Source: Escherichia coli (lineage in GTDB: Bacteria > Pseudomonadota > Gammaproteobacteria > Enterobacterales > Enterobacteriaceae). From it: a stretch of DNA of 64,000 bases. The notes under the pieces are model-generated. The model saw only the letters and a program-made list of their open reading frames with translations. It was not told the origin of the DNA and did no database searches. A program made the translations under genes and the position numbers. Positions 10,699 through 12,591 of the stretch are shown piece by piece. Position 1 is the stretch's first letter, and every line of letters begins with the position of its first letter. The stretch lies in the NCBI RefSeq assembly GCF_024502345.1, contig NZ_JALDNN010000001.1. One strand, given 5' to 3'.

Positions 10699-12591
10699 TT
10701 ACATCACCAGACGGCGAATGTCAGACAGCGTGTTGTTAATGATGGTAATGAAACGGGCACCATCAGCACCGTCGATCACGCGGTGGTCGAAGGAGAGAGA
10801 AATCGGCAGCATCAGACGCGGCACGAACTCTTTACCATTCCACACCGGCTCCATCGCGGACTTGGAAACGCCGAGGATAGCCACTTCCGGCGCGTTCACA
10901 ATCGGCGCGAAGTGGGTAGTACCCAGGCCGCCGATGCTGGAGATGGTGAAGCAACCGCCCTGCATTTCGCCCGCAGTCAGCTTACCGTCACGCGCTTTCT
11001 TAGAAATAGTCATCAGCTCGCGAGACAGCTCGATGATGCCTTTCTTGTTGACGTCTTTGAATACCGGAACAACCAGACCGTTCGGGGTATCCACCGCCAC
11101 ACCGATGTTGATGTATTTCTTCAGGGTCAGACGCTGACCGTCTTCCGACAGCGAACTGTTGAAGCGAGGCATCTGCTCAAGAGCTGCAGCAACGGCTTTC
11201 ATGATGAAGACAACTGGGGTGATCTTCACATCCAGCTTACGTTTCGCCGCTTCTTCGTTCTGCTGTTTACGGAACGCTTCCAGCTCGGTGATATCGGTTT
11301 TGTCGAAGTGAGTAACATGCGGGATCATCACCCAGTTACGGCTCAGGTTCGCACCAGAAATTTTCTGGATACGGCCCAGTTCCACTTCTTCGATTTCACC
11401 AAACTTGCTGAAGTCCACCTTCGGCCACGGCAGCATGCCTGGGATACCGCCGCCAGTCGCCGCCGGAGCTGCTTCTGCACGTTTGATAGCTTCTTTCACG
11501 TAAGCCTGAACGTCTTCGCGCAGGATACGACCTTTACGGCCAGTGCCCTTCACTTTCGCCAGGTTAACACCAAACTCGCGTGCCAGACGGCGGATCAGCG
11601 GAGTCGCGTGAACGTAAGCGTCATTTTCAGCAAATTCAGATTTGCCTTCCGCTTTCGCAGCTGGTGCTGCTGCCGGGGCTTCAGCTTTTGCTGCCGGAGC
11701 CGGCGCTGCCGCTTCCTGTTTCGCAGGAGCTGCCGCAGGCGCTGCGCCTTCAACTTCGAAGATCATAATCAGCGAGCCAGTTTTCACTTTATCGCCAACG
11801 TTGACTTTCAGTTCCTTCACGACGCCTGCAAACGGAGCCGGAACTTCCATAGAAGCTTTGTCGCCTTCTACGGTAATCAGTGACTGTTCAGCGGCAACTT
11901 TGTCGCCCACTTTCACCATCACTTCGGTCACTTCAACTTCGTCACCGCCGATATCCGGAACGTTAACTTCTTTCACGCCAGCTGCTGGTGCAGGGGCCGC
12001 TGCCGGAGCCGCTTCCTGTTTAGCCGCCGGAGCTGCCGCGCCTGCTTCACCCGCGACTTCGAAGACCATAATCAGCGAGCCGGTAGACACTTTGTCACCC
12101 ACGTTCACTTTGATCTCTTTCACGGTACCTGCAAACGGAGCCGGAACTTCCATAGAAGCCTTGTCGCCTTCTACGGTGATCAGCGACTGTTCAGCTTCAA
12201 CTTTATCGCCAACTTTCACCAGGATTTCGGTCACTTCAACTTCGTCGCTGCCGATATCCGGAACGTTAACGTCTTTTGCCGCTGCAGCCGCTGGTGCTGC
12301 TGCCGGAGCTGCTTCTTTCTTCTCTTCTGCCTGAGCAGGTGCAGCGTCTGCTGCACCGTCGGCGGAATCGAAAATCATAATCAGTGCGCCGGTCTGGGTT
12401 TTATCGCCAACAGAGACTTTGATCTCTTTAACGATACCCGCCTGCGGAGACGGAACTTCCATAGAGGCTTTGTCGCCTTCTACGGTGATCAGCGACTGTT
12501 CGGCTTCAACTTTGTCGCCCACTTTGACCAGGATCTCGGTGATTTCAACTTCATCAGCCCCGATGTCCGGTACTTTGATTTCGATAGCCAT
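10699..12591 (-). CDS. aceF: Pyruvate dehydrogenase E2 dihydrolipoamide acetyltransferase with three lipoyl domains
   Basis: 630-aa ORF; three [10 protein letters not shown] lipoyl-lysine repeats, Ala/Pro linkers, C-terminal DHRxxDG catalytic motif. Confidence 0.96.
11760..12591 (-). repeat. aceF: Intragenic ~300-bp tandem repeats encoding the three lipoyl domains of aceF
   Basis: Near-identical peptide blocks ([40 protein letters not shown]) repeated three times. Confidence 0.7.

Follow-up and report, generated by a model that had tools for sequence, protein, structure and literature searches.

The gene under study lies in a 64,000-nucleotide stretch of Escherichia coli DNA, the whole of which is referred to here as the window, and it is aceF, encoding the dihydrolipoyllysine-residue acetyltransferase (E2p) of the pyruvate dehydrogenase complex with three lipoyl domains (Table 1). 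Both the name of the gene and its three lipoyl domains had been proposed in a first-pass annotation made from the sequence, and both are borne out by the Pfam domains and by the match to annotated E. coli aceF. The 630-residue product, closed by a stop codon, has the makeup of an E2p: Biotin_lipoyl is matched three times (E = 1.6e-67), with the lipoylatable lysines held in DKA motifs at residues 40, 143, and 244; the E3_binding domain sits between the lipoyl domains and the core; and the translation of the 2-oxoacid_dh domain contains a 12-residue catalytic motif of the DHRxxDG type. The operon order pdhR-aceE-aceF-lpdA was confirmed, with aceE directly upstream, pdhR further upstream, and lpdA downstream, and the RefSeq annotation of the matching DNA names both aceE and aceF.

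By megablast with the whole gene, aceF DNA is present in 5,424 of 5,426 complete E. coli genomes, and identity to annotated aceF is 98-99.5% across 5,423 E. coli genomes (top match 99.5%; the K-12 derivative DH10B is 98.8% identical in DNA to the window copy). The exact AceF protein of the window is carried on at least 1000 public contigs. No evidence contradicting the identity of the gene emerged among the results of this analysis, and Rfam at gathering thresholds found no RNA family inside aceF. Acetyltransferase activity and in vivo lipoylation of this AceF would be expected from its identity with the characterised E. coli protein, and each lipoyl-lysine (Table 1) would then shuttle acetyl groups between the E1, E2, and E3 active sites.

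Table 1. Features of aceF, its operon neighbours, and the opposite strand (positions in the window)
Feature	Coordinates	Strand	Basis
aceF CDS, dihydrolipoyllysine-residue acetyltransferase (E2p)	10699..12591	-	Pfam and DNA match to annotated aceF
Lipoyl domain 1 (L1), aa 2-77, lipoyl-lysine K41, DKA at aa 40-42	12361..12588	-	translation, Pfam, core alignment
Ala/Pro-rich linker 1, aa 78-104; junction site of linker 1 x linker 2 deletions (DSM 103263, FDAARGOS_1283)	12280..12360	-	translation
Lipoyl domain 2 (L2), aa 105-180, lipoyl-lysine K144	12052..12279	-	translation, Pfam, core alignment
Ala/Pro-rich linker 2, aa 181-205; other junction site of linker 1 x linker 2 deletions	11977..12051	-	translation
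Lipoyl domain 3 (L3), aa 206-281, lipoyl-lysine K245	11749..11976	-	translation, Pfam, core alignment
Ala/Pro-rich linker 3, aa 282-326, with 12-nt tandem duplication at 11722-11745	11614..11748	-	Tandem Repeats Finder: period 12, 2 copies
Peripheral-subunit (E3) binding domain, aa 327-362	11506..11613	-	Pfam E3_binding, E = 1.9e-16
Catalytic acetyltransferase domain, aa 399-629, with DHRVIDG	10705..11397	-	Pfam 2-oxoacid_dh, E = 2.4e-80
Candidate crossover hot-spot in domain 2, segment encoding 17 residues	12128..12177	-	303-nt and 309-nt deletion junction intervals fall here, exact runs 17-32 nt
Hot-spot partner in domain 3	11825-11874	-	same deletion junctions
Hot-spot partner in domain 1	12451-12468	-	same deletion junctions
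Predicted antisense shadow ORF, 230 codons, TTG start	11642..12334	+	ORF list, frame analysis
Predicted antisense shadow ORF, 409 codons, codon-aligned frame	10654..11883	+	ORF list, stop mapping; no Pfam match
aceE, 887-aa ORF	12606..15269	-
lpdA, 474 aa, inside a listed 495-aa ORF with GTG start	9067..10491	-

The lipoyl array and its divergence

A repeat search resolved three copies of 300 nt (11693-11992, 11996-12295, and 12305-12604) spaced by 303 and 309 nt, and Tandem Repeats Finder placed the array at 11756-12570 (period 303, 2.7 copies, 80% matches, score 924). Both periods are multiples of three, making these head-to-tail direct repeats in the same reading frame, and the units encode the three Pfam Biotin_lipoyl domains with Ala/Pro-rich linkers between them. 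The repeat search, Tandem Repeats Finder, and Pfam thus all uphold the earlier description of a triplicated repeat of about 300 bp with Ala/Pro linker DNA. The accompanying statement that the units are near-identical was wrong. Domain cores of 228 nt, set around K41, K144, and K245 and aligned without gaps, share 77.6% of their nucleotides for L1/L2 (177/228), 75.9% for L1/L3 (173/228), and 85.1% for L2/L3 (194/228), with protein identities of 79%, 74%, and 86%, respectively, and the nucleotide differences fall mostly at third codon positions. The cores resemble one another by 17-20 standard deviations over a random expectation of 27%. The longest exact runs are 32 nt (L1/L2), 20 nt (L1/L3), and 32 nt (L2/L3); the long perfect homology that marks recombination-prone repeats is therefore absent from an array whose units are 76-85% identical.

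As a control, each domain was back-translated on its own, using codon frequencies taken from the operon outside the repeat. Such independent back-translation of the three domains already yields 71-77% nucleotide identity, so that most of the DNA similarity would follow from protein conservation and codon bias. The DNA repeat is thus best read as an old, diverged triplication, probably kept alike in the main by selection on the protein together with codon bias. Codons at identical residues are themselves identical in 68-78% of cases versus an expected 52-53% (z = 2.5-4.6, largest for L2/L3), and this modest remaining codon identity could reflect either shared ancestry or occasional gene conversion.

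Comparison of lipoyl-domain number across species, which the first-pass annotation had put forward as a check, returned one to three domains. The scan used the exact degenerate motif VDF[SA]K[FY]GE[IV]E on one genome per species and gave 120 loci, mostly from gamma- and betaproteobacteria, of which the 99 with a complete N-terminus had their domains counted by HMM. (Counting with the regular expression DK[ASV] was dropped because it over-counts, matching GDKV motifs as well.) In these 99 other proteobacterial species AceF has one lipoyl domain in 34, two in 46, three in 17, and none in 2; four domains were found in none of the 99. Pseudoalteromonas, Shewanella, Zobellella, Oceanisphaera, and Aliiglaciecola provide examples with three; Rheinheimera, Arsukibacterium, Moritella, and most Rhodocyclales have two; and Stenotrophomonas, Pseudoxanthomonas, and Lysobacter have one. 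Differences also occur within genera, as in Luteimonas (one or two), Aromatoleum (two or one), and Dechloromonas (two or one).

Among three-domain species, domains 1 and 3 most often find their best match at their own position, and domain 2 does so narrowly (151 versus 128 against position 3); likewise, the best matches of E. coli L1, L2, and L3 are positions 1, 2, and 3 in other species. This tendency of domains to match the same position elsewhere argues that the triplication is old, apparently with domains 2 and 3 locally homogenised to some extent. If gene conversion instead kept the units alike through ongoing concerted evolution, the array would be recombination-active and quasi-identical rather than old and diverged. 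The nucleotide divergence of 15-24% and the exact runs that never exceed 32 nt sit poorly with such a process, even granting that codon identity surpasses what codon bias predicts, most strongly for L2/L3. Similarly, domains 2 and 3 of some Pseudoalteromonas share 91-95% identity and stand nearer to one another than to their orthologues, as concerted evolution would have it, but no more than 25 of 146 domains are closest to a paralogue from their own protein, position leaves a clear signal, and rearrangement of any sort is seen in only 0.2% of E. coli genomes. Ongoing gene conversion as the main force is consequently an unlikely account, and an ancient triplication that has since diverged is preferred.

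Contraction of the array within E. coli

Variation in array length within the species was surveyed in 5,426 complete E. coli genomes, queried with the two flanks of the array joined into one sequence, the joining distance separating two, three, and four domains. With flanks of 300+300 nt, pieces no more than 800 nt apart join, the normal gap being 975 nt; with flanks of 600+600 nt, pieces up to 1100 nt apart join, and a fourth domain would open the gap to 1278 nt. (Whole-gene megablast was dropped as a screen for length variants: a gene short of one unit still matches over more than 80% of the query.) Only 12 of 5,423 genomes (about 0.2%) join with the shorter flanks and hence have a shortened array. 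All 5,423 matching genomes join with the longer flanks, and so neither a fourth domain nor an insertion of more than about 125 nt was found in any of them. The suggestion that the repeat is a potential site for domain-number variation by recombination is thus supported, both by these in-frame deletions and by the range of one to three domains across species, with the proviso that the copy-number polymorphism is weak: contractions are rare, expansions number zero, and the locus is not hypervariable.

The deletions measure 192, 300, 303, 306, or 309 nt, five classes with six distinct junctions, and exactly one unit has been removed in eight of the 12 genomes. Loci were translated for ten, all with intact reading frames; the remaining two (strains 439 and 446) span 1,382 nt, as do the sister isolates 447 and 463. 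The window allele served as the reference for placing the junctions, whose intervals are accordingly approximate. The 303-nt deletion (529 aa), in register between L2 and L3, occurs in C2, Rb-50, C4, and VTB97379v, and its junctions fall in a 17-nt run (C2, Rb-50) or a 32-nt run (C4, VTB97379v) within the hot-spot segment, which encodes 17 residues. In 01_3327 and 03_3013 a 309-nt deletion (527 aa) joins L1 to L2 in register through an 18-nt run in that same segment. Linker 1 is joined to linker 2 in DSM 103263 (306 nt, 528 aa; 4 nt shared exactly, or 13 nt with one mismatch) and in FDAARGOS_1283 (300 nt, 530 aa; 17 nt shared). Finally, the 192-nt deletion of four Taiwan isolates (439, 446, 447, and 463; 566 aa) is off-register: VNVGDKV, from the C-terminal half of L2, is fused to VKVGDKV, from the N-terminal half of L3. 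Pfam recognises two Biotin_lipoyl domains in each protein of 527 to 530 aa and three stretches in the chimera of 566 aa, and all downstream domains are unchanged.

All of these deletions lie between short shared stretches in direct orientation, 192-309 nt apart, and the junctions are of three types: exact runs of 17-32 nt common to two domain cores, microhomology in the linkers, or an off-register joining of two VxVGDKV motifs. Short identical stretches may occasionally support unequal exchange or replication slippage between the diverged tandem repeats, removing one unit in frame, and the outcome would be presumably functional two-domain alleles that stay rare. An identity of 17-32 nt is at or below the length usually thought to be needed for efficient RecA-mediated exchange, which makes RecA-independent slippage a plausible route. 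That every deletion is a multiple of three fits codon-periodic homology combined with selection for a working E2.

The short alleles also occur beyond the finished genomes. Exact-sequence look-up among public contigs gave 454 with the 527-aa allele, 182 with the 529-aa allele, and 17 with its VTB-type counterpart of the same length; the 530-aa, 566-aa, and 528-aa alleles were on 22, 6, and 2 contigs, respectively. These counts may include artefacts since many of the contigs are short metagenome or short-read assemblies. A cluster of two-domain AceF proteins at 90% identity holds 305 distinct sequences. For the 527-aa allele in particular, in most of the 592 collection blocks that list it the longest contig with the allele measures only 2-20 kb, ENA metagenome assemblies account for two of the three places shown for it, and PGAP marks it as a pseudogene, all of which could be taken to mean that shortened aceF alleles arise by collapse of the repeat during assembly and are not real variants. 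The 12 genomes themselves make this very improbable. All are finished "complete genome" records; the same deletion recurs in separately assembled sister isolates (the four from Taiwan, and 01_3327 with 03_3013); the six junctions differ and include linker and off-register ones; and with no exact run above 32 nt between units, long reads or large k-mers would be expected to keep them apart. Twelve finished genomes with agreeing sister isolates are in this respect firmer evidence than the contig counts, and we treat the short alleles as genuine. The PGAP call, "missing N-terminus," is made although the frame of the 527-aa allele is intact from its ATG, and an intact two-domain allele is thereby mislabelled.

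Two side observations concern AceF length. In LR-24 and EC5 the 12-nt duplication in linker 3 is single-copy, with loss of AAPA and an AceF of 626 aa. Variants of about 520-535 aa are also listed for Shigella, Salmonella, Klebsiella, Cronobacter, and Enterobacter, a hint from a biased list: the protein search with the catalytic half returned mostly singletons of 495 to 542 aa, and the 630-aa proteins sit in a 90% cluster represented by the 887-aa AceE.

The rarity and direction of these changes fit a picture in which three domains are favoured in E. coli and one or two are tolerated. A bolder proposal is that natural E. coli generates two-domain aceF alleles again and again and retains them, lipoyl-domain number being a naturally tuned trait and something more than an uncommon, harmful mishap. 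It is suggested by at least six independent junctions, by the presence of the 527-aa and 529-aa alleles on hundreds of contigs (454 and 182), and by the within-genus differences elsewhere, and we give it only a small chance of being right. If true, domain number might trade, for example, the cost or flux of pyruvate dehydrogenase.

Open frames on the opposite strand

The ORF at 11642..12334 exists and is Ala-rich, as the first-pass annotation stated: 55 of its 230 residues are Ala (24%), with 43 Ser and 32 Thr, and its product is of low complexity. In its frame, the first position of each codon pairs with the second position of a sense codon. Stops in this frame require sense codons for Tyr or His, or one for Gln preceded by a codon ending in T, and the lipoyl-plus-linker sequence is almost without these; all seven stops of the frame in aceF are of these kinds, and residues 1-325 of AceF contain no Tyr, no His, and only eight Gln. 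Given this composition, the ORF stays open whatever codons are used. Its Ala-rich stretches sit opposite the three linkers because runs of GCN are read again as GCN in that frame. When codons were re-drawn synonymously for the unchanged protein and stops counted in the same antisense frame, the lipoyl region gave 0.21 stops per 100 codons, aceE 5.0, lpdA 2.4, and the rest of aceF 1.0. Likewise, stops in this frame number 0.63 per 100 codons in the lipoyl arrays of 82 other species and 1.57 in the catalytic domains. Under re-drawing, one unit (L3 plus linker 3) stayed open over 119 codons every time and three units over 238-324, from which it follows that openness is set by the protein sequence and that triplication merely lengthens it.

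The other long ORFs occupy a different, codon-aligned antisense frame, in which stops can arise only where the sense strand has one of the rare codons TTA, CTA, and TCA, all along the highly expressed aceE-aceF-lpdA operon. This frame has one stop in aceF, two in aceE, and three in lpdA, leaving the 409-aa ORF listed in Table 1, a 757-aa ORF opposite aceE (12747..15020), and another opposite lpdA (9040..9897). The 409-aa ORF ends at the reverse complement of the sole TCA/TTA/CTA codon of aceF (TCA, Ser237). It lies mostly outside the repeat array, its 3' end entering lipoyl domain 3, and the ORFs opposite aceE and lpdA lie wholly outside. The claim that the repeats produce long antisense ORFs can consequently be kept in part: triplication lengthens the Ala-rich ORF from about 119 to 238 codons. 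Its openness comes from the composition of AceF, and the 409-aa, 757-aa, and lpdA-opposite ORFs need no repeat at all.

Whether 11642..12334 or 10654..11883 might nonetheless be a genuine gene for an Ala/Ser/Thr-rich protein deserves consideration, in view of their lengths (230 and 409 codons) and of the antisense overlapping genes reported in E. coli O157:H7 (PMC9927249). That report does not mention aceF. More importantly, the open frame is fully predicted from AceF under any synonymous coding, and each stop is explained by sense codons. The 230-codon ORF contains no ATG anywhere and has no Shine-Dalgarno sequence before its TTG start; no promoter-like site was found on the plus strand between 10500 and 12800; a Pfam search of both ORFs returned no match; and the E. 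coli RefSeq records listed annotate only aceF under the match, with no feature on the opposite strand. A true overlapping gene here is thus extremely improbable. Stop mapping, frame statistics, and re-draws fully account for the open frame through the sense gene, and 11642..12334 is without start signals, homologues, or annotation of its own; judged on sequence, the long opposite-strand ORFs are best regarded as non-coding by-products, and antisense ORFs here should not be called genes in annotation.

Relation to known systems

The E. coli aceF sequence was reportedly first described by Stephens et al. in 1983. The feature at the centre of this study is already known, being the textbook three-fold repeat of the lipoyl "swinging-arm" domains of E. 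coli E2, and taken as a whole this explanation of the locus is very probably correct; the survey within the species adds a small new detail. Two papers that refer to Guest et al. 1985 (J Mol Biol 185:743), namely PMC8421416 and PMC6270654, describe E. coli K-12 AceF and its three tandem lipoyl domains, and the gene in the window has the same length (630 aa) and domain order, the differences being only allelic.

Engineered one- and two-domain E. coli pyruvate dehydrogenase complexes have been assembled and studied (PMC6270654; PMC8421416), among them the constructs pGS110 and pGS156 of the Guest and Perham laboratories (PMC6270654). PMC5013485 cites Guest et al. 1985 for one lipoyl domain being enough for activity. 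The natural alleles of 527 to 530 aa have the architecture of the engineered two-domain chains, hybrid in-register fusion domains included. Unlike the engineered chains, they are spontaneous and occur in natural and clinical isolates. For the off-register fusion produced by the 192-nt deletion (566 aa) we know of no engineered counterpart. The survey thus supplies a natural frequency of about 0.2%, contractions only, for a rearrangement that the papers cited here describe from engineered constructs; a literature search, itself of incomplete coverage, found no paper on natural E. coli lipoyl-domain polymorphism or on evolved aceF deletions.

The antisense ORFs resemble the shadow ORFs so termed by Kreitmeier et al. 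(bioRxiv 10.1101/2021.02.09.430400), long non-coding ORFs that face highly expressed genes, in being fully embedded opposite a well-supported gene and in owing their openness to sense codon and amino-acid usage. The ORF at 11642..12334 differs from the usual kind in that it occupies a less usual antisense frame and is open through protein composition, the lack of Tyr and His, and not through codon bias.

More broadly, E2 chains bear one to three lipoyl domains (PMC6270654, PMC8421416), and the AceF of Serratia symbiotica has naturally lost one or two of them (PMC5013485). The change in Serratia symbiotica and across the range of species is of the same kind as that seen here, the loss of whole Biotin_lipoyl units. 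There, however, it is fixed between species, whereas in E. coli it is a rare polymorphism within one.

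Length variants of aceF and their representation in databases

Length variation in the lipoyl-domain region of aceF is not confined to the loss of whole repeats. In the E. coli isolates 447 and 463 from Taiwan (L009, L010 and L015) a 192-nt deletion is off-register, joining VNVGDKV of lipoyl domain 2 to VKVGDKV of domain 3. It makes use of the two-fold quasi-repeat within the lipoyl fold, and the AceF it is predicted to yield has 566 aa and a chimeric segment of 1.4 domains carrying two DKA motifs. Linker 3 varies as well: it contains a polymorphic 12-nt tandem duplication (two copies of CGCAGGAGCTGC, window 11722-11745), and the unit is present once in strains LR-24 and EC5, giving a 626-aa AceF without AAPA.

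In L005 and L006 (NZ_CP074961.1 and NZ_CP074958.1) PGAP calls the 527-aa two-domain aceF a pseudogene, "incomplete; missing N-terminus", although its reading frame is intact, starting at the usual ATG and ending at the usual stop. The window's 630-aa AceF (window:10702-12591:-) belongs to a 90%-identity cluster that mixes AceE and AceF among its 16,813 members and has an 887-aa AceE sequence as representative; because AceE stands for the mixed cluster, normal-length AceF is hidden from searches of cluster representatives.

Antisense reading frames and RNA family matches

Very long antisense ORFs also lie opposite other large ORFs of the window (see table). The one opposite aceE, the only one of these four checked for frame, occupies the codon-aligned frame, in which stops arise only opposite the sense codons TTA, CTA and TCA. 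Among the Rfam matches, tp2 falls antisense to the leader of aceE and the intergenic region between pdhR and aceE, and the match to PssrA ("plasmid-encoded Shigella sRNA A") is chromosomal, directly upstream of the presumed ftsZ and overlapping its start.

Features in the window outside aceF; acnB, secA and ftsZ are presumed from E. coli gene order
Feature	Position	Strand	Context or score
Antisense ORF, 828 aa	4254..6740	+	opposite 4287..7037(-), presumably acnB
Antisense ORF, 757 aa	12747..15020	+	opposite aceE
Antisense ORF, 376 aa	34516..35646	+	opposite 34336..37041(-), presumably secA
Antisense ORF, 393 aa	38873..40054	+	opposite 38864..40015(-), presumably ftsZ
tp2 sRNA	15272-15385	+	Rfam, 103.9 bits
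naRNA4	33811-33887		Rfam
STnc40	34291-34360		Rfam
PssrA	40007-40096	-	Rfam, 105.5 bits
Leu leader	61578-61727		Rfam
593-aa ORF	19025..20806	-	pdhR-aroP insert
~95-aa ORF, first after 593-aa ORF	18738..19022	-	pdhR-aroP insert
~95-aa ORF, second	18040..18330	-	pdhR-aroP insert
~95-aa ORF, third	17342..17632	-	pdhR-aroP insert

An accessory insert between pdhR and aroP

Separately, the pdhR-aroP interval carries an accessory insert of ~4.5 kb (within window 16200-21400), at least 80% of which is covered in only 946 of 5,423 genomes, with a top identity of 96%. Its three short ORFs follow the 593-aa ORF at a spacing of 698 nt. Where E. coli genomes contain matching DNA, its annotations are tssD (for the Hcp tube protein of the T6SS), three "bacteriocin immunity proteins" and fragments with a pyocin-S2/colicin-E7 DNase domain. 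The insert resembles a locus for a DNase toxin fused to Hcp, accompanied by an immunity-gene array.
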